DNA of 63,910 nt, the filler included, from Folioceros fuciformis (lineage: Eukaryota), in the NCBI GenBank assembly GCA_049999805.1. It is 5 parts of 5 records of this genome, joined end to end, with 100 filler letters (N's around TTAATTAATTAA, not from the genome) between each part and the next. Parts side by side here need not be neighbours in the genome. Positions count along the whole stretch, not along the records: positions 37,581 to 47,524 come from JBNGIO010004114.1; 4 more parts are not named here. The stretch is one strand, 5' to 3'. The first letter of the stretch is position 1, and every line of letters begins with the position of its first letter. Below, in pieces: positions 3-60,270 of this stretch. The translations under genes were made by a program, and so were the position numbers. Below the pieces are notes generated by a model. That model made no database searches and had not been told where the DNA came from. It saw nothing but the letters and a program-made list of their open reading frames with translations.

Positions 3-3000
3 TGTGGAGCTGGAGGCGGCGTCACTGGGCTCAACCTCAGCAGTTCCAATATCGCTGGTGTGGTGGATGGTCGCCTGTGCGACATCCCGGGGCTGGAGTT
101 TCTCCTCCTCGACGACAATTATCTGGAGGGAGGCTTCCCCCTGGGGCTCTTCAACTGCTCCAATCTTGTGTCGCTCAACCTCAGCCAGAACCTGTTCGAA
201 GGCCCGGTGCCGGATGGCTTCGCCAAGTTGAGCAAGCTGGAGGTGCTGGATCTCTCCTACTGCAATTTCAATGGGAGCATTCCGGCTTCTATTGGCGGTC
301 TTACGATGCTCTCGTTTCTCGACCTGTCGGCCAACGGGTTTACGGACGGAGGCATCCCTGCTTCCTTCACCTATCTCTCAAGTGTCCGCTACCTGCATGT
401 GGCGTGGAATTATTTTCTGGAGGGTCCCTTTCTTGCGGATTTTCGGGGACTGCCCGGCCTGGTGTCCTTCCAGGCTCAGCAGTGTCTGCTCTTCGGCAAC
501 CTTTCCGACACCATTGGGCTGCTCACCAATCTGTCCTATTTCGACGTCTCCAACAACAGTCTTACGGGACGGATACCGCAGTCGATTGTTGCCTTGTCCA
601 ATCTTACCTTCTTCGATGTGGCGAATAACCAGCTCGTGGGTGGTGTTCCTACCGGCGTTTCCAACCTCAAGAGCTTGACGCATTTCTTCCTGTACAGCAA
701 CCAGCTCACGGGGCCGCTGCCCTCTGGTTTCGGGGCTCTGCCCAACTTGTACTCCATCGACGTCAGCAACAATTCCTTGGACGGTCCGATTCCTGGAGAT
801 CTGGTGAATTGTAAGCAGCTCGTCTTGTTCCACATCCAACTCAACAACTTCTCAGGGCCCATACCGGATGGCTTCGCCGACCTTCCGCTACTGCAGGAGT
901 TTGTCGTCTTCAACAACCAGCACAACGGCAGCATACCGTCGCGGTTGGGAGGCCACGCGAACCTCACGCGGATCGATGTTTCTACGAACTCGCTTTCGGG
1001 ATTGCTTCCCCCGAACCTTTGCAGCGGAGGAGTCTTGTATGAGTTGGAGGTCTTCTCTAATTCCTTCAGTGGAAGCTTGCCGGACTCATATGGCAGCTGC
1101 AATAGCCTTAGGAGGATACGGATCCACGACAATGCGTTCTCGGGCCCGTTTCCCCCTGGAATATGGAGCAATCCGGTTCTCCAGTACTTGGAGATATCCT
1201 CCAACCAGTTTGCTGGGAGCATTCCACCGGAGATCGGGAAGGCTTCTAGCTTGAGGACAGTGAGGATGAATTACAATATGTTCAGTGGGGCTATACCTGC
1301 CGAGATCAGTCAGGTGGAATTGGCGGTACTTGAAGCAAGCTTCAACCAGCTGGAGGGGCCGATTCCCGACACCATTGGGAACATGGTGAATTTGACGAGT
1401 CTCCTTCTCAATGCGAACCGAATTTCAGGTTCCATTCCCCCCGAGCTCGGCCGCTGTCGTTCCCTTGCCAACCTTGACCTCTCCAACAATCAGCTGTCCG
1501 GGGAGTTTCCGTCCTCCCTTGCAGAGTTGACCTCGCTGAGCTTTCTGGATGTCTCTGACAACCGGTTGAGTGGACAGCTTCCTCCCAAGTTTGGGCTAGG
1601 GACTGTGATCAGCTCGTTCAATTTTTCCTACAATTCTTTCACCGGCTCTCTTCCGCCAGCGTTCTGGAGCGGCGCATTTGCAGATAGCTTTCTGGGCAAT
1701 CCAGGTTTGTGCGGACCAGGTCTGCCCACATCGCGGCCCTGCACGAAGTCCGGGAGAAACGTTGCGGTGCCGTGGGTTGTGGGTGGGACATTTATTGCAG
1801 CTGCCGTCCTTTTCATCTTCAGCTCCTGTTGGTTCTACCGCAAGTATTCGAAGCATCAGAGGAGCGTGCGCCAGAGGGATGCCGGTCCCTGGAGGCTGAA
1901 GTCATTCCAGAAAGTTGGTTTCTCCGAGGCCGATGTGCTGGCAAGTTTGGACGAAGACAATGTCATCGGAGAGGGAGGAGCCGGCAAAGTGTACAAGGCT
2001 TCGTTGCCAGATGGTCAGGTGGTGGCGGTGAAGAAGCTGTGGACCAATGTGAAAGGTCCAGGCAATCGTAATGACAACGGTTTCAAAGCTGAGGTGGAGA
2101 CTTTAGGCAAGATCCGTCATCGGAACATCGTGAAGCTGCTGTGTTGCTGCTCCAACAAGGAGTCTAATTTGCTGGTCTATGAGTACATGGAGAACGGCAG
2201 CCTCGGGGAACTCCTGCACAGCAAGAAGTCCAGTCTCCTGGACTGGGCCAGCCGGTTCAAGATTGCTCTGGGATCTGCCCAGGGCCTTGCCTACTTGCAC
2301 CATGACTGCATCCCCCAAATCCTGCACCGAGACGTGAAGTCGAACAACATCTTGCTGGATGAAGACTTCGAACCACATGTTGCTGACTTCGGGCTGGCAA
2401 AGATTCTGGAGAAGTTCTCGAGGGGTGACTCCATGTCTGTCGTGGCTGGGTCCTACGGCTACATCGCTCCAGGTACGTTCTCCCTCCCTGCGGACATGCC
2501 CTAGCCTAGGCCTGGGCCTATATGCAACTCGCCATTATTCTGTGAAAAATCTCTCACGTGGGTCACTGTTCTGTACGCAGAGTATGGGTACACATTGAAA
2601 GTGAGCGAAAAGAGCGATATTTACAGTTTTGGGGTAGTGCTTCTGGAGCTAGTCACAGGGAAGCGGCCCATCGAACCCGAATTCGGCGACGGTGTCGACC
2701 TGGTGAAGTGGGTGTCCAGCAAGATCCACAGCAAGGAAGGTCTCCCAGACATCCTAGACCCCAGACTTGGTGGAGCATCTCAAGATGACATGGTCCGCGT
2801 GCTCATGCTCGCTCTGAGATGCACGGATCCAAACCCAGCCCAGCGCCCGACCATGCAGCAAGTTGTGGAGTACCTCCGTCAAGCCAACCCCCAGCAGTCG
2901 GCCAAAGGTGTCAAGGATTGGAAAGACTGTGACAAGGAATTCGGCCGAACGGACTCCACGCCTTTGGATGCCGATGCCTGCCTAGACGTCAAGCTTCTTG

Positions 3001-7629: not shown

Positions 7630-9489
7630 TCAGCCCTTGCCTCTGTACGACGGCGAGTAGACTGTAAAGGAGTAGAAGGCAGCCGCCGTGCCACAAGTGA
7701 GAAGCAGCATGGTAGCCCAGGAGGTCACGAACACTGCCAACAACGGCCAATTCACATGCTTCCTGCTGTCCGCCAGCCCAACGCCCACGAGCGCTCCGAT
7801 GAGAATGTGGGTGGTGGAGAGGGGGAGCCGAACCTTCAAGGCCAGCACCACGGTAGCCAGTGCAGAAATGTGGGCGCTGAAACCCCTGGCCGGGGAGAGG
7901 TAGACGAGGCGACCACCAACGGAACGGATTATCTTCCACCCCCAGATGGCGAAGCCGACACTAGCCCCGGCCCCGCCCAGTAACAGCAGCCACGGCACCA
8001 GCGACCCTTTGCCGGCTCCGTCTGCAGTGCCGTGGCTGTAGATGCCCACCACCGCCGCATACGGCCCCATTGCCCACGCCAGCTCGTTGGATCCATGAGC
8101 CAAGGCCGCCGCGCTTGCCGTCAGAATCTGCAGGAAGCTGAAGAGCTCTTCCGCCTTGGCGTCGAACTTCTCCGCCAAAGCGTGCCTGACGAGCGTGTGC
8201 CGGTCGTAGGTCAGCCTGCGACTGTAGGTCGCCGTCCGCAGCCGCAGTAGCGACCGCATGAACTTTTCCCTCCCCGTCAAGGGTGGCCTGCGGCGCAGCT
8301 TCTGGAAGCTCAGCAGACGATTCGGGGTGCTGGCCAGGAGCTGGCCGAAGGACAGCTTGGGCTTGTCTAGGACAGCCGGAGGAGGCACGGCAGGGCTGCT
8401 GATGCTCCTGCTCTTGTAGTGAAGACTGAAGTCCGAGCTCTGTTCCTCCTCATCCCCTTCCACCACCGTGGCCAACATTTTCCGCTCCGTGAATTGCTGG
8501 ATAAGCTCATCGGGACTCAGTTCCTGCTCCTTTTTCCCGCCATCCTGCCCCGGCTCCTGATCCTGCTCCTCCTGTTGCTGCTCGAGGTGGGAGTTAGGGT
8601 TTCTAGTGCTCTCCTCCCCGTCCGCGGAGGGCATAGCCAGCCCTCTCCCGGAGGAGGGGGAGGCGGATGCGGAGTTGAAGCATCCCAGCCTTCTCTGCGC
8701 CATGGGCACCACGATGAGGTACGCGAGCAGGCTAGCCAGGCATCCCGACAGGCCCGCGATCAAGGACGCCCGGCGGGGGTCCAAGTCCCTCAAGTGCACC
8801 CTTGGGCAGGCCCGGTAAATGACGAAGTAGATGAGCACGGCGACGGTGACCCCGTAGTAGATGGGCATGGCTCTCAGGCTGCGCTCCACGCAGTGCTGCG
8901 TGCGGAGGACCAGGTGCTTGGTGGCGCCGAAGATGAGGAAGGCGATGGCGGCGGCGATGCAAGGAGCCAGGATCCAGGACAGGACGATGGAGAGCACTCC
9001 TCCCACGCCGAGTGCCGACTGCATCTCCCCCTTATTCTCGGTCCAGTACACGGATTTCACCCCGCTCACGGAGACGAGGATCCCGATCATGGCGCCCCAT
9101 ACGGCCAGGGTGGAGGAGACCGGAAGCTCCCAATGCACGGCAGCGGCCAGCCATGCAGCTGCCACAATGAGACAGATGAAGAGCCCCCACATGAGCAAGG
9201 CATCGTCCTGCCCCGGGGGCCTGTGCCGCATCACTCTGGCCACCAGAGTGTCCCATTCCCGGATGCCCAAGAGGTACGCCCCACTGATCTCCAGCAGGGA
9301 GGCCAGCAGCACCGCCTGCGGCAGGGTGAGCGCGCCCGAGCCCACGGCCGGGGCGAAGGATAGCGGGAAATCCACCGCCCCCACGGCCACGGCCCAGGCC
9401 ACAGCCACGAATCCCCCGACGATGGGGATCCACCTGTAAGTGGAAGTCAAGTGCCCCGCCGCAGCTGCTGCATCTTGAGACAAATCCAT
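7630..9489 (-). CDS. PiT/PHO4 (SLC20) family phosphate transporter, PTB-like, intronless
   Basis: Two inverted hydrophobic PiT halves (PAVGSGALT, LPVSST, SWILAP; HG.N, WGWKIIRSVG, LPLSTTH..GALVGVG) around a long hydrophilic loop. No evident plastid transit peptide from ATG 9489; the frame is open further upstream. Confidence 0.88.
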   Translation of the reverse strand: MDLSQDAAAAAGHLTSTYRWIPIVGGFVAVAWAVAVGAVDFPLSFAPAVGSGALTLPQAVLLASLLEISGAYLLGIREWDTLVARVMRHRPPGQDDALLMWGLFICLIVAAAWLAAAVHWELPVSSTLAVWGAMIGILVSVSGVKSVYWTENKGEMQSALGVGGVLSIVLSWILAPCIAAAIAFLIFGATKHLVLRTQHCVERSLRAMPIYYGVTVAVLIYFVIYRACPRVHLRDLDPRRASLIAGLSGCLASLLAYLIVVPMAQRRLGCFNSASASPSSGRGLAMPSADGEESTRNPNSHLEQQQEEQDQEPGQDGGKKEQELSPDELIQQFTERKMLATVVEGDEEEQSSDFSLHYKSRSISSPAVPPPAVLDKPKLSFGQLLASTPNRLLSFQKLRRRPPLTGREKFMRSLLRLRTATYSRRLTYDRHTLVRHALAEKFDAKAEELFSFLQILTASAAALAHGSNELAWAMGPYAAVVGIYSHGTADGAGKGSLVPWLLLLGGAGASVGFAIWGWKIIRSVGGRLVYLSPARGFSAHISALATVVLALKVRLPLSTTHILIGALVGVGLADSRKHVNWPLLAVFVTSWATMLLLTCGTAAAFYSFTVYSPSYRGKG

Positions 9490-9870
9490 CCGTCTCCGCC
9501 TGCCGCATGTATCCCTGGATCCACTCCTACTACTATTGCTCCTGCCCCGACCCCTGCCTCTGCGGATGGATTCGGTCGCCAATGGAAGCGCCCGTGGGTG
9601 GATGAGCGAAGTGCGAATCGGATGTGTCAGAGAATCCCCGTGCAGGAGCTGGAGACGGAAGTGGTGGGCAAATTGCTTGTCCTCGAGCATCGCCTCAGGG
9701 CGGTCTGGGGCCGGAAGCAATCTTCGCACTCCCGTGCCACATCCTTGTTAGACGAAACGCGCTTTCTACCCGCCCAGTCAAACATCGGCGTGCACAGTGC
9801 GCCACGCTGACCTAATGCAGGCAATCCCATGAAAGCCTAGCCGTTTCCCATGGCCATGTCGGAGTTACCA

Positions 9871-17504: not shown

Positions 17505-18593
17505 TCATGAGAGTCGTTGGGATATCTCTAAGAGGGTCATACCAGCAAAACCGAGGAAGAGCGCCCCTCCCACATACGCTATCACCCTCTCTGACAGGTA
17601 ACTACTCAAGAAGGAACCGCCGAGAACGGCCAGCAGTGTGGCCACACCATGTCCAACAATAGCACCCGACACCACGCCCAACGGATCTGACGCTGCAGCT
17701 AGAGCAATGGTGGAGAAGAAGGACTTATCCCCCCATTCCGCCACAAAAACTAAAGCAAAAGTGCCCACTATGGTCCCCGCTGCAGCCTGTAAGGCGCCAG
17801 ACGCAAGACCCGAGTCATCCACTCCAGCAATGGCCAGCTCGGCCTCCTGCTGTTCTTCGGCCAGAGCTGAATCCTCCATGGAAGCGGCACTGATGAGAGT
17901 GGTGACCCCGAAGTACACGAGCAGCACAACTGCCGCAAGATCGTCCAGCGGAATCTGCGTCTGCCCGATCCCAAACGGAAGAATCTCATCGACGTAGTGG
18001 AACCCCCGCCCCAACGCGACGGATATGAGCGTCATCGCTGCCAGAGCCCCGAAAGTGCCTACGAAAACCGGCGCACTGGACTTCCGCGCAGACAGGAGCG
18101 CGGCAATGAAGAACGTTTTGTCCCCGATCTCAGAGAAAAAAATGAGCAAAAACGAGGACGCAAATCCACTCTGAAAGTCGGCTCCATCATCCAGCAAGCC
18201 AGCTATTTGCTCCCCGGGCACCGAGTCCGGCCCGGCCCAGGCCGCCCCGCCCGCCAATGCTCCCAGGCCAGCCACACCAAGGGCCATCCATTTTAATCTA
18301 TCAGAGGAGTCGCCACCAACTCCGTCCCTACAACAAGCCGCTTTCTCCTCGCCGTTGGTGCCGCTCGCCCCGTCCAATCCCTGGGCCTGCACCTTCCGTG
18401 CCGCCGCCTTCTGCCACACAACAGAACTCCTTCTTCCTCCGACAGACACGTTCCCTCCGATTCCGCTGCTCTCCCGAATGCATTTGCAAGCCCCGGAGGA
18501 AGGCCGGCGCGAGAGCGCATTCCTGCACTTGCTCGGCAACCGCGACACTGACGTGTGACAAGAGAGCGTGGCCCGCACCACAGTGCTCTCCAT
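17505..18593 (-). CDS. PAM71: GDT1/UPF0016 chloroplast Mn2+/Ca2+ transporter, PAM71-like, intronless
   Basis: Ser/Arg-rich transit peptide; twin motifs FSEIGDKTFF and AEWGDKSFF; TM helices around an acidic loop (EEQQEAE). Confidence 0.88.
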   Translation of the reverse strand: MESTVVRATLSCHTSVSRLPSKCRNALSRRPSSGACKCIRESSGIGGNVSVGGRRSSVVWQKAAARKVQAQGLDGASGTNGEEKAACCRDGVGGDSSDRLKWMALGVAGLGALAGGAAWAGPDSVPGEQIAGLLDDGADFQSGFASSFLLIFFSEIGDKTFFIAALLSARKSSAPVFVGTFGALAAMTLISVALGRGFHYVDEILPFGIGQTQIPLDDLAAVVLLVYFGVTTLISAASMEDSALAEEQQEAELAIAGVDDSGLASGALQAAAGTIVGTFALVFVAEWGDKSFFSTIALAAASDPLGVVSGAIVGHGVATLLAVLGGSFLSSYLSERVIAYVGGALFLGFAGMTLLEISQRLS

Positions 18594-28245: not shown

Positions 28246-31200
28246 TCAAGGAGATTTTGTCATCTCTTGAGCTACTTTCCAGTGGTAGACCTGCACAGAG
28301 TGAGATTGGAGCTTGGCCTTAATGGCGTCGGCAGCATCCTGGTCTTTGGCCATGAGAAAGCCAAATCCTCCTCCACCTGCTCCAGCCAGCTTGTAGCCGC
28401 AGGTCAGATGCTCGATGTCTCGGAAAAGCTTGTCGACTCCAGGGTTGCTGCAAGAGGGGTCTAGCTCCTGGTTTAGATTCCAGGTGTGTGACATGACCTC
28501 GCCGAGCTTGTCAAGGTTACCTTGATGGAGATATGCTTGGCCTTGCTGGGCAAGGTCTGTTAGCCTTTCGATGGACCTTATCAGGACTGCATCTCGCTGC
28601 AGGTAGCGGCGAACAACTTTCTCCAACACAGTTACTGCTTGCCTCACCTGCGAGAGCTTCAGGATGTTGGCAACCTGCTTGTACGAAATTCTTATCTGAG
28701 TAGGAGGGAATTAGGGAAGCCTCACCTGACCAGTGAAGACTACAACCATCCGTTGTTCCAGTTCTGCAAGCACATTGCAGGGCAAAGAGATTTCTTCAAC
28801 GTTGAGCTGGAGTTGTGTTTGGCCTGGGATCCCAGTGGTACACTTGATGCCAGGGTACAGTCCTCCGACTTGATCTTGCCAGCCACCGCCTGAGCCCATT
28901 ACCTGCTCCAAAATCAGTACAAGGCGTGCTATCTGGGCTTTGCTCTGCCAGTCATCTCCACCCCTTAGCCTAAGAAGACTTTTCACCACTGCAGCAGCCA
29001 GAATGCTTGATGTGCCCAAGCCACTGCCTCTCGGAACATTTGACCAGGTCTGGATTTCGAGTCCAACCCCGTCAGGCAATAGTACCTTGCACCTTCCACC
29101 TGCACCTCTCAGAACAACAGACGAGAGTCAGGTACAGACAGTCACGTGTCTTTGATACAAGTGCAAAAGAAAGGCTGCACATGAGACCTGCGAATCCAGT
29201 CACCATAATGGCAGCCTTAACCAGTCGAAAGGGGTCGTCCGGCTGCATTGGCAGTATGATGTCGTGAAACTCCTTGATAACTGCCTTGTTGCCTGCATCA
29301 TCAGACAGCCAGATTCCTGGCTCCAGGGTTGCACACACTTTTGCCCCAACGGGAGCAGCTCCTTCTAACAGCACTGCCATATTCAAGACTCTGCCCTTTC
29401 TTTCCAGACTCCAAGGTGGAGTGTCACTCCACCCGCCAGAGATATCCAACCGCACAGGGAGAACCGTGGTGATAGGGGCACCGAAAGCCAAGTGATTCAA
29501 ATTGTACATGGAATCTGGCTCGTCTGCTATCTCAAAGAAACTTGCTCAGAAGTCGGATCCTGTAATGCAAAAGGAAATCATAACAGAAGGCCAGACTGAC
29601 CTGTTCGATTCATCCGTGCAACAGCTTCTGTTTCTGCTCTGATTGCCCTCAGACCTTGTGCTTCAAGTATCACAGCACGGTCTTCCTCACCAGATGCCCT
29701 TGCAAGGTCTGTTCCTTGTCCCTTACGTTCACTGAGGAGCAGGCATTTAACAACTCTTTGCAAATGTCAATTCCAGACTCTCCTTCGAGGATCCGCCGAG
29801 AGAGTTTGGAGAAATCTCGTGTCATTCCCTCAGTGATGTTTGCCCTAGCAAGACTTGCTGCAAGTTTGGCATGAACTATTACCGTCTCTGTGTGGAGTCT
29901 GACAAAGTCAGTTTCACCATGGAGGTCTGCCAGGCTCAGGCGGATACATTTCCGCCAATCGTGAGCTATTTTGGACGATGGTTCAATGGCACCGAACAGC
30001 CACAAGGAGAAACACAGTCTGTCATTTGGGGGCCCGAGGGGGAAAAGGTGTGCATTCCATAGATTCTTGCAGTTACTGTTGGACTCTCGGCCCCACAAGT
30101 CCTCCTCCTTAATACCCATGTTGGGCAGAAAAGTATCCCATGCTTCACCCAGAAACGTACTTCCAGGGCCACCATACGGAGCTTTGGGGTTATCTCGAGT
30201 ACCACAACAGAGAGTGATCCTGTTGTGCGAAGCATTCCTTAGTGGCACTTCCCACAGGCAAGAGTCATCAGGAACAGCAACCATTCCAGACTTCTGGCTC
30301 GAGGTTTGACATTGGGTGATGTGCATTCCCATGACAAAACAGCGACTCCCAATATGCACGCCCTTTGCCAATGAACAGTAGTAGATCAGGCTTTGTTTAC
30401 CCACAGAAGTACCTTCTGAAATTTCAGAAGCTATGATGACTGCTGATGCAGCCACCTCACAGGATGAACGCGGATATGGCATTACGCTGAAGTGCTGATG
30501 CAGACCTCGCCAGGACTGGTCCTGACTTAGGTGATCCAGAACTTCAGTTGAGGTCCCGAAATGAAGAAAGGTCAAGTCACCTGAATTGAACATCCAACTG
30601 GAGAAAATCACCTCATTCGCCGGAAATGCGATAACACCGGAAAGGAGAGCAGAGGCGATGAGTTGTGTCTAATCGCAAAATAGGAAAGCCCGACACTTAC
30701 GAGCGCAGTAATGGTATAATTGGCTTGATCCAAGGGCCTCAATCAGCTGCTTGCCCAGAGGTCGAGATAACAGCCACTGATGCCGAGCAAGCACCCATGC
30801 TCCAGCCATTTCCTCATACAAGCTCAGCTATGACCAAAAGGGAGGACGAGGACACGACATCAGCATGGGTATATGAAGGAAAACACTGGACCAAAGAGGT
30901 GAGAAGGAACACACTTGCTGCCCACTGTCCACAAGGCTGGAAACAGGATCCGGCTCCTGAAGGGCAAGGCCGATCAATGCAGTGCATACTTCTCCACGCA
31001 GAGCAAACATGCCCGTATCAAGCAAAACTTCCCCAGAAGGCCCAATAGCTCCTTTCCTTGCCATCTCCTCCAGAGTTGGCTTCTGCAAAAGATCCTCTAC
31101 CAGAACAGGGTCCTGGCTGGAGAAAACCTTTGATAAAATGACTCCATGGTGTGAAGCCAAATCAGGAGTGGCAGGAACTGTGACAACGCACACTCCATTC

Positions 31201-37050: not shown

Positions 37051-39998
37051 CATTGGCAAGGTGTAGAGCAGTTTACATGTGAATGCTTCCTCCTCCCTAG
37101 AGATCTCTAGTGATGCATGTGTTTGCTACACTACATTTTTCCCGTTTTTGTCTAAGCTCTAACTTTAAAAATCATGGTGTGTCACACCAACCCAGAAAAA
37201 GAGATGATTGTGTCCCCATCCATCCACAAACTTCTACACATGAACTGGAATTGTGTCAAGCATGATTGTGTGTTACATAAACGGTGGAGATGTGTCAAAG
37301 ATGACTGTGTGTTATTGGATAGGTGCATGCAAATAGTAATTAATTAATAATTTACTTATCCTAATAAGTATGATTAGTGGTAATTAATAAAATATGTAGT
37401 TAGAATAATTAAAGAATAAAATTTAATGTGAAGTCAACAAAATAGATACAATTGTGGTTGAGCATTCAACAATATATGAGNNNNNNNNNNNNNNNNNNNN
37501 NNNNNNNNNNNNNNNNNNNNNNNNTTAATTAATTAANNNNNNNNNNNNNNNNNNNNNNNNNNNNNNNNNNNNNNNNNNNNTAATTAGCACAAAGAAAAAT
37601 AGGAAAAATGACCAGAAAATCAAGGAAAATTAGGAAAAATAAGTTGAAAAAGAAAACCAAACCATACCACTATTAACCCTTTTTCAACCAAAACAAACTA
37701 CTACCCCAAACTTTGGAGGTTCACACATAGGAGAGAGTTTTGGCCTGTAGAGAAGAAAACAAGTAGTGGAGAAGGTGTGGAAGAATAAAGGAGGAGTAGA
37801 GGTGAAGGTGAAGGTCGTTGTAGTATATAAAGTTGTAAGGCACCGAGAGTGCTCAGGGCTTGGTAAGGAGCCTGAGGATGTGTTTCCTTAAATCCGCCCT
37901 AATTGGTTCGTGTTTTTGACGTGGTGCTGGCAAGATCTGAGGGAGGGGGTTCAAGGATCACTAGAGGAGCCACATGGCAAAGGAGGAGAGGAGGAAGCAA
38001 GGAGGAGAGAAGAAAGAGAGGTCTCACACTCTCACACAATCTCAATTGCAAGGGAGCTCAAGAGGGTATTTATACCCTGTAGAAGAGCTCCCAAGGAAGC
38101 TTCACAAGCAGCGCACAGGAAGTTGCGCAAGAAGCTTCCTACAGATTAGCTTCAGCTATTATAAACAAATGATACTTAACTAGACACTAATCTTAGACTA
38201 AACACAAGAATACCAAGAATATGCTCCTCAAGAAGTGGCAAGATGCTCCTAGACGCCCAAAGGACGAGATCGTCTTCACAAAGCCATGTTGGAAGAAATT
38301 TGCTTTTGGGGTGGATGTGGGTGTATAGATGTAGTCACTTAGGACTAAGTGGCCACTTGAATTGATCATGCTTATAAGGATTACGTATAGGAAATCCTCT
38401 CCAAGGTTTTGTGCTACAGATTACACCCATCTGGGAGCATAGATCTACCCAAAAAATGTGGATCAACCTAAAATATGTGGCCTTGGTGTCTAATTGTTCA
38501 CACGTCACCGTGAGCAACGATCATTCCTATGATTCCTAGCCATTTGATGTGATGGGTGCACAACTTAATGTAGTAATCTAGGCGTGGAGAATAAGAATTT
38601 GGAGGGAGAGGTTGTATGCCTCTCCCAAAATAGGGAAGCCTCATGAAACATTGTCATGATACTTCATATATGGCTTTAGCTCTAATGCAAGACATGCCCA
38701 TGAGATATGAAGCATGATAGCCCGTATTCCATTAGAACTCCATGGTTGAGTTGGTGACTTGCAAAGGTTCCATTTTTTGTTTTTTGTTGTGTTTTTGGAA
38801 TTAAGAACATCCAGCTCTTATTTACTAATAACTCCATGGTTAAGCACACTTGGGTTGGATCAAAACCTGAATGGGTGACCTACAAAGGTGTTTTTTGGAA
38901 TTCAAAATATCCAAATATGAACTAGAGATGCATAGAGAAGGTTTGCATATCCAATTAAAGCTATTTGATAATAGTTTATATTAGAGGCAATATTCTACTA
39001 AGCATGTTGTTGGCAACAACAATCGTATGATTAGTTTGATCAAGGGATTTGTTGTTATGGAAGCCATGGTTCTACATGACCTTGATACCAAATTAGAATT
39101 GCTAATGTAGAGATAGATGCACCAAAGATGATCTATTAACAATTGAATAGGTGGGTACATTGGTAGGCCTTAAATAGCAGTTATTGAAGGAGTGTGTTCT
39201 TTACCTAGCTTGTCATTTAACTAACTGCAATTATATCTAAGTCTGGTTAGACTAACCAAAGTGATACACAACGATATGGTCTGCCTTATATTCTAACTTG
39301 TTCGAGGACGCATTGCTCACCAGTTGTGAATGGTTGACCACGCATGGAGGGAGGGAACAAGCTCCAAGCTTTAGTGTCTTTTGGCAAAAGCCCCTAGAGA
39401 AGGGAGGAGAGAGGCTCCAACACATCAAATGGCAGGATGCAATGTATGGAAACAACAATGACAGGAAATAGAGGGGAGTACATGGGTCCCGCAGGGAGGA
39501 GTGCAGAGTCCAAGGACACCAGGGCAAGGCAACTCTTACAAGGGCAAGGCAACTCTTACAAGGGAAATTGGTGAGACAACGACGGAATGATAGGAGTCTC
39601 TAGGAAAACCTTTTTATAGCCTATGGTCCCATTTTGGGGCTGGATTTTCCTATTTCAAAATTATTTTCGCCGTCCAGGTGAATCAAAACTCGCCCATTCT
39701 TTTGAGAGGAAGTCCCTTGTGGTCCCGCTTTGGTATGCCATATTGGCCACTTCTTGGTGTCTTATTAGGAAAATAGTGCCACTCCTATTCCAACTGGAGG
39801 GTTTTCCTTCCTCGCGCAAAAGGGGGTCTGTCAAGCGTAAACGATGAAGCAAAGATGGGGCCGCGGGGATTTTCCTCTTCTAATAACAATGTTATCCCGA
39901 AGAAAATGGCCCCGACGACGTTGTGAGATTAAACCAAAACCCGACGTTGTTTATATCCATTTTCCTCCGCAGAACAGTGTGCTTGTATTCAGCAAAGT

Positions 39999-42203
39999 AT
40001 GGTGCCCCTGAGACTTGCTGCACCGCACTCAGCAATCTCGGATGCGCGTATAGTGGGGATAGAGGAACGAGGGGCGTGGAGGTCAGATACTCGTGTGTCA
40101 GGCTCAGCCAAGCCTAAGTACGCTTTTGGCAGTTTGGCTCTATGCAAGGAAGAGCTTGTTGCCAAAGAGCGGCAGGAGGTTCTATGGCAACATTTCTTCT
40201 CGCATCCATGGCAGTGGTGGGACAACAGGGCGGATAAGAGGAGCGGGCGTCATCCCGATTTCAGGCACAAAACTTCAAAGGAGCCCCTGTGGCTGGACAA
40301 CTGTCACAGGCCAGGTTGGGTGGACTGGCAGCTAGCGAGGTGGGATGCTACCGCTGCATACCCGTACCCACAAGAGTCCATGCTCCAGAGCTTGAGCAGA
40401 AGTTGTAGGGACGGGAAGCTGATGGACGCTGTCCAATCCCTGGATCTGTTGGTGCAGCGCGCATGCCCTATCAGTTGTTATCTCTTCTACCGTGTGCTGA
40501 AGCTCTGCATTGAACAGAGGGATTTAGCTCTTGGCAGGCGTGTGCATGCTCTTGCCCAGAAGAGCGGATACGGGTCAAATGCCTTCTTGGCCAATCACAT
40601 CATCGCCATGTATTGTTCTCACGGCCTATTGGAGGACGCAGCCGAGGTCTTCACCACCGTAATAGCTCCGAACGCGCACATGTGGGCCACCATTATGTTT
40701 GGGTATGTCCGCCACGGCGAGCCCGTGGCTGCTATCAGGCTTTACCAGTGGATGCGGAATTCAAGCGTGAAGCCAGACAATCGTGTATTTGTAGCAGTCC
40801 TCAAGGCTTGCGCTGCAGCAACCGATTTAACTGCAGGCGAGGAAGTGCATGCTGATATTGTGGCCTGTGACTTACGGGTTGATATCTTCATCGGCAGCAG
40901 CCTGGTGAACATGTATGCAAAATGCGGGAGCGTGGAGGCTGCTCGTTCTGTTTTCGATGGTCTGGACAGACGAGATGCAGTGACGTGGAACGCCATGATG
41001 GTGGGATATGTGCAGCAGGGGCTTGGTCGAGAAGCTTTGGCCCTGTATGGGATTATGCAACAGGAGCCCATCCCTCCTGAAGACCGTGTTACATTTGTGT
41101 GCCTCCTTCAAGCATGTGCCAGCATGGGAGCACTGCAGCAAGGGACGCAAGTACATGCCCAGATTCGGAAAAGGGGCTTGGAAGCAGATTTGTCGATTGG
41201 CAGCGGTTTGGTGGACATGTACGCCAAGTGCGGCAGGTTGAAGGATGCTCGCAAAGTTTTTGATGGGCTGCCCTTTCCCGCGAAAACTGTTGTGACATGG
41301 ACTGCGCTGCTCAACGGCTACGCTGAACATGGGGTTGGTGAAATGGCAGTTCAGTGCTTTGAAGAGATGCGGAAGCAAGGTGTGGAGCCGGATGGAGGCA
41401 GTTTTGTAAGTGTTCTGGTGGCCTGCAGTCATGCAGGCCTAGTGCAGGAGGGCCTCCAATATTTCAGGATGATGGTAGAGGAGTACGGCATTGTGGCACT
41501 TGACTACCACCATAATTGCATGATCGATCTTCTTGGGCGGGCAGGTTGGCTGGATGAGGCCGAAGGTATACTTCAGACTGCGGCATTCGACAGTTACGTT
41601 GTGGGGTTGAAGGCTTTGCTGAGTGCGTGCAAAAACCACGGTGACGCGGAGCGCGGGAAACGATGTTTTGAGCGTCTGGTAGCCCTTGACCCTCAGAATG
41701 CACCTGCCTACGTGCTCTTGGGTGGCCTTTACGCCAGTGCGGGAAGGTGGGAAGATGCGGAGGAGATAGAGAGGCTGAGAAAGAGAGCAGGTGCATGGAA
41801 GAAACCTGCGAAGGCTTGCATTGAAGTGAGGCAGCAGGTGCACGAGTTCACCGTAGGGGAACACAGAGAGGAGATTTCGTCTAAGCTTAGGAGCATGAGC
41901 ACGAGGTTGAAGGAGGAGGGGGGTCACTTGCCACAAACAGATCTTGTGCTTTGGCCCGTGTCTGAGCAGGCGAAGGAGGATGCACTGTGTGGGCATGCGG
42001 AGAAACTTGCCCTGGCCTATGGTCTTCTCAACACGCCCTATGGCACACCTTTGGTGGTCACAAAAAATCTTCGTATGTGCAATGACTGCCACAGCAGTAC
42101 GAAGATCATGTCCCGTCTTGAGCAGCGGGAGATTATAGTCCGGGATGTCAACCGAGTGCACACTTTTATGGATGGCAATTGCTCATGTCGTGATCGGCAC
42201 TGA
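39999..42203 (+). CDS. PLS-class PPR protein with E domains and a DYW:KP (DRH-type) deaminase-like domain; N-terminal OSB-type PDF motif; intronless
   Basis: P-L-S repeats (LVNMYAKCGS, VTWNAMM.GY, TFVCLLQACA), E region, KKPAKACIEV, HAEKLA, KNLRMCNDCH, C-terminal CSCRDRH. Confidence 0.95.
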   Translation: MVPLRLAAPHSAISDARIVGIEERGAWRSDTRVSGSAKPKYAFGSLALCKEELVAKERQEVLWQHFFSHPWQWWDNRADKRSGRHPDFRHKTSKEPLWLDNCHRPGWVDWQLARWDATAAYPYPQESMLQSLSRSCRDGKLMDAVQSLDLLVQRACPISCYLFYRVLKLCIEQRDLALGRRVHALAQKSGYGSNAFLANHIIAMYCSHGLLEDAAEVFTTVIAPNAHMWATIMFGYVRHGEPVAAIRLYQWMRNSSVKPDNRVFVAVLKACAAATDLTAGEEVHADIVACDLRVDIFIGSSLVNMYAKCGSVEAARSVFDGLDRRDAVTWNAMMVGYVQQGLGREALALYGIMQQEPIPPEDRVTFVCLLQACASMGALQQGTQVHAQIRKRGLEADLSIGSGLVDMYAKCGRLKDARKVFDGLPFPAKTVVTWTALLNGYAEHGVGEMAVQCFEEMRKQGVEPDGGSFVSVLVACSHAGLVQEGLQYFRMMVEEYGIVALDYHHNCMIDLLGRAGWLDEAEGILQTAAFDSYVVGLKALLSACKNHGDAERGKRCFERLVALDPQNAPAYVLLGGLYASAGRWEDAEEIERLRKRAGAWKKPAKACIEVRQQVHEFTVGEHREEISSKLRSMSTRLKEEGGHLPQTDLVLWPVSEQAKEDALCGHAEKLALAYGLLNTPYGTPLVVTKNLRMCNDCHSSTKIMSRLEQREIIVRDVNRVHTFMDGNCSCRDRH

Positions 42204-42774
42204 CGCAGACAGCTAAAGTTAATCACCATTATGTGTCACACTTAGTTAAGCGAAGTGGAAGCGGCCGGGAAACACCTGGGGGTGTTCTGGGTACTGCGTG
42301 CGTGCGGTAGGTGAACGAAAATGGTCTGCAATCCAGGACTACCTGCAGCTGTAGGGCACATCTCGCGGGGGACTCCCCACCCGATGCAGGTATACTTATA
42401 CAGTGCAGCGAAAGAAGCTTACTCCCGTATATGGATGTGCACCATGGCGTCTTCTGTATGGCACAGTGTCCATGCCTGTGCAGCGAAGCCGCTCTTTGGC
42501 GCAGGCAGACGTGGTAGCAGCAACAGCAGCATTGCCCGTTGTTCCTTCCTGAACTTTCCATGCCGAAGGCTGGCCGGTGCCCGAGCGCCTAGAATATCGC
42601 CACAGCCTTTGGCCACTCATGATGATCTACGTGTTCAGGTGAAAGGGGGGCGTGTTCTCAGCCCGTCGATACCCCAGCTCTTCTTCCACCGATATCACGC
42701 TTCTCGTCCTCACCACATTTCTTTGCTAAGTGCAGGTAATTCACGCCCTGCCGTCTCATTTCACGGACTCTCAG

Positions 42775-43513
42775 ACGGAAGCGTTGGATTTGGACATTGG
42801 TGTGGAGACGGTATGTTGGTTAAAACCCCTTTGGTCGTTCCGCATGTATCTGCCGCAAAACTGAGGTCATCTTACAGGACCCCGGTGGGAAGCAGATCTT
42901 TCAGGTTATCGCTTCTGGCGCGGACGCCGTATTCGACCATCTCCCTGTCACCACCCCCACCATCCTAGTAGGGCTGGTTTCGACCTATTATCTGGTTAAT
43001 CTCATTCTACGAAGTATTTTCTGCAACTATTTTATGGTGGCCCCTTCTGTCCACCTAGGCGAGATTACAGCCGAAGGGCTCCGAGCCTACGATGGGACTG
43101 ATTCCTCGAAGCCTTTACTTGTGGCCATCAAGGGCCACATATATGACGTGTCCCACTCGCGGTATGAGCCCCTCCCTTTCTCGCCTTTCTTCCATCAATG
43201 ACATGAAGTGCAGGGGTGAAAGCCTGCCATTGCTCACAACTTGGATGGATTTGCATTCAGGATCCTCTATGGCCCTCGAGGTCCCTATTCCCTGTTTGCG
43301 GGCAGCGAAGCCAGTCGGGCTCTGGCCAAACACTCTTTCGAACAGCACGACCTCACTGATGATCTTCAAGGGCTCACGCCTGACGAGATGGATACCTTGT
43401 CCGACTGGGAGTTAAAGTTCCGCAATAAGTATCCGAGAGTCGGCTTCATCGCGGGTTCCATGGCAGCATTCAGCATGGAAGGAGACGGCGTGCCGGGAGG
43501 CATGGACGGATAG
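42775..43513 (+). CDS. Membrane steroid-binding protein (MAPR/MSBP, cytochrome b5-like); exons 42878-43160 and 43261-43513, probable 36-nt exon 42775-42810; start unresolved
   Basis: TM segment ILVGLVSTYYLVNLIL, then LGEITAEGLRAYDGTD..KPLLVAIKG.IYDVS.SR..YGP.GPY.LFAG..ASRALAK.SF..W..KF..KYP.VG. Confidence 0.85.
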
Positions 43514-58619: not shown

Positions 58620-60270
58620 ATGTCAAACCCATCATTTACATCAGACTTGAAAGAGAAAGATTGGTTTAACGGTACTAAGTACCCTATGTGGAGAGTGCGT
58701 ATCAAGGCCATCCTCATAGCACAAGGTGTCTGGAGTGTGGTCAGTGGTTCATTTGCAGAACGTGATCCAGCCACAGGCAATCAAGCTAATAAGGATAGGT
58801 GGGGAGCACATAACCAAGTTGCTGTAGCAGTCTTGTTCAATGGACTCGACTCCATACTTGTCCCTGACATAGAGTATCTCACAAAGGCCATAGAGATATG
58901 GAACCAATTAGAAAAGACCTATTAGGTCACAAATATAATGCAACAATGCACTGTTAGGCAAGAATATTATACGTTAAGAATGAAAGAGGGAGATAAAGTG
59001 GGTCCTTACTGTACTGAGTTCCGCCACTTACGTGCTCAACTCGCTTCATTGAAGTACAAGATTGTTGGGGAACATGTTGTGCAGCTGCTGAGCAGCTTGC
59101 CTACATCCCTCCAGCAATTTGTTAGTTTGTATAATAGGCCTTTGTGTATAGCATAGGCTGCTATAGCCGCCGGGAACGCAAACACCCTCACAATTGAAGA
59201 TGTCATCGTGGCTGCCTTGCATTCGGAGTAGCACAGTTGCCTGTTTTCTGTCGGAAGCTCTAAGCCAAAGGCAGATAAAGTATTAATGGCCAAGTTTAAA
59301 CCTAACAGGTGGAAGGACAAGCCTGACCAAGCAAACGAAGGTGATTCCGGATCATCCAGCTCAACTCCAAAGAAGACAGTCAACTGCAATTGGTGTGGTA
59401 AACTCGGTCACTGGGCCAGAGACTGCTGTAAAAAGAAGGCAAGGGAACCCCTGAAGAAGGCATCCACCAGTGTTGCTGTTAAGGACAAGAGCTCAAACGA
59501 CTCTTCCTCATTTGCAGAGAGCGTCAAAGGAATAGTCAGAATCTACACATTATGTCTCTCAAACTCCTTCCATGATAGCGACAGTTGGTACTTGGATTCA
59601 GGTGCAACTACCCACAGATGCAAGGAAAAGGAATTGTTCTTGTACCTGGACACCTCACATATCCATGATAAGGTGTTGATGGGTGACGAGAAGAGTGAGA
59701 CAGGCCTTCAAATTGAAGGACGTGGTAAATGCATTTTCGGATTACATGATAAGGTTGACCTGGTACTAGAAGATGTCTTGTATGTCCCACGAATGGCAAA
59801 GAACCTCGTGTCCTTGAGCAGGCTAATGAGTCTGAAACTGTACAGCATGTTTGCAGACAGAACTTCCTGCTCTTTCCACACTATCTCTATCCCGCACAAT
59901 CTAGTATTCAAAGGCATTCTTGACTGTGATCTGTATCGTTTGGACATCTATTGTAGGTCTCAACCCGCAGCTCTATCAATAGGCACAGGTCAGCTGGATT
60001 CAAAAGTGTTAGCTTCCCTTTGGCATGCTAGGCTTGGTCATGCCAACAGGGGAAAGCTCATTGACATGGTTACAAAGGACTGTTATCAAGAACCCCTACC
60101 TAGATGCTTCAAGGACCTTCCGATTTGTGAAACCTACATACTTGCTAAGCCAGAAGGAATAGCCATTTTCAAGCACACCTGCACATAGGGCCAATCATAT
60201 GTTAGAACTAATACATGCTGACATCTCTAGGAAAATTCACAAGCCATCATTTGGAGGTTCTCGGTATTTG
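58620..60270 (+). mobile_element. Ty1/Copia gag, protease and start of integrase (degenerate, truncated)
   Basis: FNGTKYPMWR..KAIL...GVW, LRMKEG, LLSSLP, zinc knuckle CNWCGKLGHWARDC, WYLDSGATTH, DVLYVP...NLVS, LWHARLGH, LELIHADI. Confidence 0.95.

Follow-up and report, generated by a model that had tools for sequence, protein, structure and literature searches.

The window analysed here is a stretch of 63,910 nucleotides (filler included, with 672 N inside) joined from five records of the genome of Folioceros fuciformis (GCA_049999805.1), and is plant nuclear DNA with several large open reading frames (ORFs). The part that comes from JBNGIO010004114.1 carries an intronless gene for a pentatricopeptide repeat (PPR) protein, in which a PDF motif of the kind known from the organellar proteins of plants that bind single-stranded DNA (OSB proteins) is placed ahead of the PPR array (Table 1). 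The ORF starts at the earliest in-frame ATG downstream of a stop, and the encoded protein of 734 amino acids (aa) contains PPR repeats (Pfam PPR, E 1.6e-43), E motifs (E_motif, 9.5e-12) and a DYW domain (DYW_deaminase, 2.9e-33) with the HxE and CxxCH zinc-site residues, that is, the features by which PLS-class PPR-DYW proteins are recognized. In the AlphaFold2 (AF2) model of the whole protein, which has a mean predicted local distance difference test (pLDDT) score of 83.2, residues 1-52 are disordered (pLDDT 24-34, no secondary structure), regular helix pairs extend over residues 125-597 and the DYW fold follows. The PPR helix pairs, from H125-137/H141-153 through H502-514/H518-527, have pLDDT values above 90, and their spacing suggests an array of three P1-L1-S1 triplets, then P2-L2-S2 and then E1/E2, while the disordered N-terminus of 52 residues would be consistent with targeting of the protein to an organelle.

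It has been reported that the DYW:KP type of deaminase domain is marked by a KP box that replaces the PG box, by HAE instead of HSE and by an altered C-terminal DYW, with DRH and GRP as hornwort variants (PMC9478123), and DYW:KP PPR proteins of hornworts are regarded as candidates for U-to-C editing (Gerke 2020 and Gutmann 2020, cited in PMC9478123). All sequence marks of the DRH subtype are found in the present protein: KPAKACI replaces the PG box, HAEK replaces HSEK, CNDCH is kept and the terminus is DRH. The gene therefore appears to encode a factor for RNA editing in organelles that belongs to the PLS-E-DYW class, DYW:KP DRH subtype and hornwort type and, because its deaminase domain is of this type and subtype, it is a candidate U-to-C editor.

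The PDF motif and its relatives

The PDF motif has been described as a single-stranded DNA (ssDNA)-binding repeat of OSB proteins, about 50 residues long, rich in aromatic and basic residues and with a Pro-Asp-Phe signature (PMC6963530, PMC4166229, PMC6451138). In AtOSB1 the PDF motif alone is reported to suffice for ssDNA binding, the OB fold being dispensable (PMC6963530, PMC6451138), and a preference of recombinant OSB1 and OSB2 for ssDNA, compared with double-stranded DNA or RNA, has been reported (PMC4166229). A preliminary description of the window had placed such a motif at about residues 62-112 of the PPR ORF, in front of an editing-type array, and the details bear it out: these residues map exactly to 40182..40334, WWDNR and PDFRHK are in place, and translation and Pfam put the motif in one intronless ORF ahead of the PLS-E-DYW array. 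On the opposite strand, no ORF of at least 100 aa overlaps the motif.

The identity of the motif is supported by its relatives. When residues 50-122 were compared by phmmer with 1,835,955,588 representative proteins, 633 matches reached E<=1e-3, of which 175 lay at or below 1e-10 and 15 at or below 1e-30, a similarity well above chance; many of the matched proteins align over several stretches, a mark of tandem repeats. Among the best 150 of these 633, Pfam (E<=1e-5) finds SSB, as in the OSB architecture, in 30, PPR families in 10 and a kinesin motor in one, and a local iterative search on the same 150 classes 74 as SSB-like, 11 as PPR and 65 as neither. OSB1-named relatives are present among the single-motif matches to SSB-domain proteins: P0108 (phmmer E 6.3e-13, 50% identity, Pfam SSB 1.1e-17) belongs to a cluster that includes 'protein osb1 mitochondrial' of Phtheirospermum, and the SSB+PDF protein P0122 (phmmer E 2.3e-12) to one with the name 'OSB1, mitochondrial-like protein' (Drosera). 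An alignment of 43 sequences has nine invariant columns (W63, W73, D75, R77, K80, P86, D87, F88 and W107), and in a profile alignment of 183 PPR-linked with 178 SSB-linked motifs, 14 columns reach at least 90% conservation in each of the two groups, all of them kept in this gene. Our own PDF profile, which includes this very sequence, matches residues 54-122 at E 3.6e-24. The conserved columns are largely aromatic and basic (W, W, D, R, K, PDF, K, LW, P, W), and the 51-residue core holds seven W, three F, eight K/R and five H. By these measures residues 54-122 are a true homologue of the OSB-type PDF motif. The gene thus carries this motif and yet does not encode an OSB protein, since an SSB-like domain is absent from the 734-aa protein: Pfam SSB gives no match to it at E<=1, and the families that match are of the PPR/TPR-type, E_motif and DYW only. 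Residues 1-134 match no Pfam family at E<=1, and Pfam has no model for the PDF motif.

Modelled by AF2 on the 43-row alignment, residues 45-128 reach a pLDDT of 90.0 and a predicted template modelling score (pTM) of 0.74, with a helix at 46-68, short strands at 73-75 (WWD) and 88-90 (FRH) and a second helix at 107-120. A sequence search of the PDB with the motif returned a single chance-level row (E 1.5), Foldseek against the PDB gave no match at E<=1e-3, and among 48,161 chains compared by VIA-align the best Z was 4.8, with none of at least 5. For the predicted module no clear fold match was found, which does not make the fold new. A disordered N-terminus of ~52 residues precedes the motif, which sits behind this stretch and not within it. 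That the motif is a piece of the transit peptide was considered and judged unlikely, because it is predicted to fold and, in relatives, occurs repeatedly and deep within the protein.

The motif is also met in assembled contigs. In run X1, a contig of 937 letters equals 39982..40918 with 0 differences, and the colinear contigs over 40902..41120 and 41092..42089 are likewise without differences. Another X1 contig, of 1757 letters, leaves out 42636..42732 and 42810..42894 (97 and 85 bases), both GT..AG-bounded and on the + strand, from which it follows that X1 contains spliced RNA; the PDF motif is present in contigs of a run holding spliced transcripts. There is no X1 cover over 39000..39981, which was not used as evidence on the transcript start. 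Contigs of related organisms (runs X2, X3 and X7; ~93% identity) start at 40063, 40093 or 40151 and reach 40928, so that each joins the motif to the first PPR repeats without a break. The many 'joints' within the ORF at 90% likeness stem from paralogous PPR repeats and not from introns. As a separate observation, the 1757-letter contig begins in the final 120 bases of the PPR ORF and extends downstream, with a depth of ~140, where the PPR contigs have 15-33. The 3' end of the PPR gene is therefore overlapped by a + strand transcript that is spliced and more strongly expressed (window 42083..43000).

Table 1. Features of the PPR gene and other genes or gene fragments in the window (positions along the whole window).
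Feature	Position	Strand	Basis or remark
PPR editing-factor ORF	39999..42203	+	intronless; 734 aa plus stop; ORF scan and translation
Residues 1-52, presumed organelle-targeting presequence	39999..40154	+	disordered, no Pfam family
Residues 54-122, single PDF motif	40158..40364	+	phmmer, own profile, conserved columns, AF2 domain model
Residues 62-112, PDF core as first described	40182..40334	+	exact coordinate mapping
WWDNR, residues 73-77	40215..40229	+	translation
PDFRHK, residues 86-91	40254..40271	+	translation
Residues 125-527, twelve PPR-type helix pairs	40371..41579	+	Pfam PPR, PPR_2, PPR_1, PPR_3; predicted helices
Residues 534-608, E1/E2 motifs	41598..41822	+	Pfam E_motif at 547-608
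KP box KPAKACI, residues 602-608, closing E1/E2	41802..41822	+	motif position
Residues 642-734, DYW-type deaminase domain, C-terminal DRH	41922..42200	+	Pfam DYW_deaminase at 642-732, E 2.9e-33
HAEK, residues 666-669	41994..42005	+	motif position
CNDCH, residues 694-698	42078..42092	+	motif position
LRR receptor-like kinase, cut by window start	3..2504	+	ORF and family match
PHO4-family phosphate transporter	7630..9690	-	ORF and family match
GDT1-family cation antiporter	17505..18593	-	ORF and family match
Fucose pyrophosphorylase fragment	29670..30593	-	ORF and family match
Copia-type Pol/GAG-pre-integrase fragment	59286..60188	+	ORF and family match

Distribution of PDF motifs among PPR proteins

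A search for the motif-bearing region, with the consensus-like motif of P0256 (residues 25-108) as query and proteins of 480-1530 aa as targets, gave 130 matches at E<=1e-3 from 136 candidates. The best 120 of these 130 all bear PPR Pfam families and come from Diphasiastrum (87), Sphagnum (22) and Calypogeia (3), eight being without a name. Our own profile finds PDF in each of the 120 listed proteins, as one copy in 95, two in 20 and three in five, and the first motif always lies within the first 200 residues. A word-based search with this gene's own motif (residues 50-122), which needs several shared 5-mers, gave one candidate and no match. The PPR-bearing phmmer matches that are named come from the ferns Adiantum capillus-veneris and Pteridium aquilinum, the lycophyte Diphasiastrum complanatum and Sphagnum. 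Among the best 120 whole-length homologues, where the top identity is ~53% and no close named orthologue occurs, 31 have an N-terminal PDF by our own profile, including 18 of the 29 Diphasiastrum rows, four rows of the liverwort Calypogeia fissa, Sphagnum rows and two further KP-type homologues, P0198 (GRP end) and P0211 (DRH end). None of the 24 seed-plant rows among them (15 Cryptomeria and nine Ginkgo) has the motif, which suggests its absence from seed-plant homologues as far as the listed matches of searches with non-seed queries go.

The module is neither special to this gene nor tied to the DYW:KP type. It recurs in at least 120 PPR proteins of several non-seed lineages, and C-terminal typing of the 120 listed PDF+PPR proteins gives 73 without a DYW end, 34 PG-like, four KP-like and nine other. 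Only three of 19 HAEK-type (KP-like) relatives carry PDF, a count in which many HAEK-type models come from short contigs and have a possibly cut N-terminus. KP-specificity of the fusion was rejected on the strength of both results.

With respect to the position of the motif, the next detectable P-type unit lies 0-9 residues past it in 52 of 151 PDF+PPR proteins and, in nearly all the remaining ones, at ~70-89 or 100-119 residues, that is, at whole-PPR-unit spacing; the single-motif PPR profile sees P-type units only, and these figures are spacing classes, not exact linker lengths. The database PPR models P0177, P0201, P0217 and P0274 begin mid-PDF, with profile positions 39-55 onward found at residues 2-13. 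The N-termini of such models are probably cut short, and counts of PDF+PPR proteins from annotated proteomes are therefore likely to be underestimates. Among the PLS-class PPR proteins of non-seed plants, as represented by liverwort, moss, lycophyte and fern, the PDF fusion is thus widespread.

A FastTree phylogeny with 394 motifs, of which 63 are PPR-linked, 178 SSB-linked and 153 without a label, needs seven PPR/SSB label changes, against at least 45 (mean 55.8) across 200 shuffles, which speaks for an old lineage of PPR-linked motifs and against random captures. A clade of 49 tips contains 43 of the PPR-linked motifs (support 84), and the motif of this gene, together with motifs of fern and other PPR proteins, falls into another clade (support 99), whose 14 tips comprise 11 PPR-linked and three unlabelled motifs. 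PPR-linked and SSB-linked motifs differ consistently at two columns (F vs L, D vs N). Judged from this tree, the PPR-linked motifs cluster together, and it is clustering, not a dated single origin, that is meant.

Examples of PDF+PPR proteins in the databases are annotated merely as hypothetical, uncharacterized or PPR proteins, and surveys based on Pfam miss the module, there being no Pfam model for it. The available portion of a kingdom-wide survey of editing factors from 2026 (PMC13386178) does not mention PDF, OSB or ssDNA. No publication joining PDF and PPR was found, and early OSB and DYW:KP papers or the supplements of surveys (PMC13386178, PMC13393729) may mention the fusion. The architecture is real and recurrent, and represents an apparently undescribed variant of a known family.

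Beyond the PPR proteins, the searches returned further PDF-bearing and PPR-bearing proteins. Near-pure PDF-repeat proteins without SSB or PPR domains (P0002, P0003, P0005 and P0006) have 13 matched stretches in a 1160-aa protein of Kingdonia uniflora and 9-11 in the others. In two models from Ranunculales/Striga, PDF motifs are combined with a kinesin motor or with an 'interactor of constitutive active ROPs' protein; these may be gene-model fusions. The dinoflagellate Effrenium voratum also has PDF-repeat proteins (P0013 and P0397-P0401), with nine matched stretches in P0013 and no SSB or PPR domain in it, and the chlorophyte Pyramimonas has an SSB+PDF protein (P0120); the motif therefore extends past land plants and streptophyte algae, although it has been called green-plant-only in one review (PMC4166229). 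The best 120 homologues also include a protein from outside plants, P0281, a 1095-aa PPR-E-DYW protein of PG type with a DYW end, annotated as Balamuthia mandrillaris (amoeba).

Possible role of the module

Tentatively, with a probability of roughly 0.45, the PDF motif may be read as a cis-acting, sequence-unspecific clamp on single-stranded nucleic acid, chiefly RNA, beside the first PPR repeat. Such a clamp would most likely touch the same RNA strand immediately 5' of the PPR footprint, where it would add affinity or hold the editing site unfolded, meanwhile leaving the PPR array to read the sequence and the DYW domain to act on the target base. The first PPR repeats of an array contact the 5' end of the RNA target, and a clamp just 5' of the footprint is for this reason the most economical reading. 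In the whole-protein model the PDF helix 106-118 ends about six residues ahead of the first PPR helix, which begins at residue 125. In favour of the clamp are the homology to the OSB motif and the ssDNA binding reported for the latter, the composition of the core, the predicted fold, the recurring N-terminal placement, the clustering of the PPR-linked motifs and the contigs that span motif and array. The clamp presupposes that the PDF motif is retained in the mature protein, that this copy binds nucleic acid with a preference for RNA and that editing is affected.

Several points weigh against the clamp. The preference reported for OSB1 and OSB2 is for ssDNA and not for RNA (PMC4166229), so that RNA binding by PDF would lack a direct precedent. 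The whole-protein AF2 model gives the PDF part a pLDDT of only ~50 and no confident placement versus the PPR array, and the proposed geometry of the two is taken from sequence spacing. Since only three of the 19 HAEK-type relatives carry PDF, KP-type editors generally do not seem to need it. The tree was built from a short alignment in which kin share labels, and three of the labels were assigned manually, that of P0106 on the basis of Pfam and those of P0097 and P0081 by eye. As to the contigs, run X1 counts as RNA by inference, and the differences listed within the core, three synonymous and three nonsynonymous (S68L, H103Y and R104K) with the conserved columns unaffected, are the best-supported ones only, with 149 further unlisted, which leaves both counts incomplete.

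The explanation offered in the preliminary description was different, namely that the OSB-type preference for ssDNA is kept and that the editor is anchored by an ssDNA or nucleoid tether to transcription bubbles, R-loops or replication/recombination intermediates, with editing taking place co-transcriptionally. Binding of ssDNA, preferred over RNA, is indeed the sole reported activity of PDF motifs (PMC4166229, PMC6963530, PMC6451138), and the 14 columns shared with OSB-linked motifs at 90% or more are all retained here. However, the PPR-linked motifs fall into clades of their own, from which most SSB-linked motifs are separate, and the two differ at the F/L and D/N columns, because of which the function may have shifted; in addition, a gap of about six residues to an RNA-binding array points to the same strand as the contact more readily than to a separate DNA molecule. 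We consider the tether unlikely, though still worth taking seriously.

A protein-protein module that serves oligomerization or docking to a further factor (such as OSB, Whirly, RNA polymerase or a second editing factor), without binding nucleic acid, would agree with the report that AtOSB2 is a tetramer (PMC6963530), with the two amphipathic-looking helices predicted around a small strand region, which could make an interface, and with the presence of one to three copies per protein, which is compatible with a valency function as well. Its conserved columns are, however, mainly aromatic and basic, as is typical of contacts with single-stranded nucleic acids, and no partner is known; such a module is rather improbable. 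Least credible is a passenger or vestige, inherited with an ancestral PLS gene, spread by retroposition-driven PPR expansion and contributing little or only extending the targeting region: PPR proteins have expanded massively in these lineages (PMC13386178) and a neutral appendage could be copied repeatedly, 16 of the 19 HAEK-type relatives lack PDF and so do the 24 seed-plant rows, but all 14 conserved columns are intact here, the columns stay intact across liverwort, moss, lycophyte and fern, as is not expected of a neutral stretch of 60 residues, the module is predicted to fold (pLDDT 90), unlike residues 1-52, and its distance from the N-terminus in relatives, up to ~200 residues, and its repetition in some of them do not fit a transit peptide.

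A broader form of the clamp can be imagined, in which PDF is an ancestral cis-fused helper of land-plant PLS editors, a 5' single-strand cap that does a MORF-like job in non-seed plants and was lost once such trans helpers arose. This is speculative and we give it little credence; if it were true, OSB ssDNA binders and PPR editors would share a module linking organelle genome maintenance and RNA editing.

Comparison with known systems

PPR editing factors are usually drawn as a transit peptide, a PPR array, E motifs and a DYW domain. The PDF motif adds to this a further module, conserved and by prediction able to fold, which is present in well over a hundred PLS proteins. These belong to a liverwort, mosses, a lycophyte and ferns, and the product of this KP-type gene is among them. 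With the hornwort DYW:KP DRH proteins, the present protein shares the PLS array, E1/E2, the KP box, HAE, CxDCH and the C-terminal DRH, but these proteins are described without an N-terminal PDF module in the available text of PMC9478123. Other PPR proteins are likewise known to combine the array with a second nucleic-acid-handling module in one chain, among them RRM-PPR proteins such as PPR4, PPR-SMR, PPR-LAGLIDADG and PRORP/NYN. For Physcomitrium the extra domains given in the accessible part of PMC9459714 are RRM, LAGLIDADG, SMR, NYN, CBS and SAP, with PDF not among them. These domain-bearing proteins are mostly of the P class, whereas the PDF fusion is found on the PLS class (editing-type) and at the N-terminal end.

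The MORF/RIP proteins of seed-plant editosomes offer an analogy of role only, and a conjectural one, as accessory elements that would raise the RNA-binding performance of PLS editors. MORFs are separate proteins of an unrelated fold, whereas PDF is fused in cis, and there is no evidence linking the two; MORFs are reported to be absent from mosses (PMC9459714).

A further comparison is with the OSB proteins themselves (Arabidopsis OSB1-4 and relatives), which are plant proteins related to organelles and have the same motif, W..FF..P..WWDNR..K..PDF.HK...LW...P.WV. In OSB proteins PDF lies C-terminal to an OB-fold/SSB-like domain, whereas here there is no SSB domain and PDF is N-terminal to a PPR array; moreover, the PPR-linked motifs cluster apart from most of the OSB-linked ones. 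If the PDF module of PPR proteins binds RNA or DNA, it would change the way in which the target affinity and specificity of these editors are modelled, the set of parts that engineering requires of a minimal natural U-to-C or C-to-U editor, and the view of how editing may couple to nucleoids. In conclusion, the fusion with PPR arrays provides a second, independent context, besides that of the OSB proteins, in which the function of the PDF motif can be learned.

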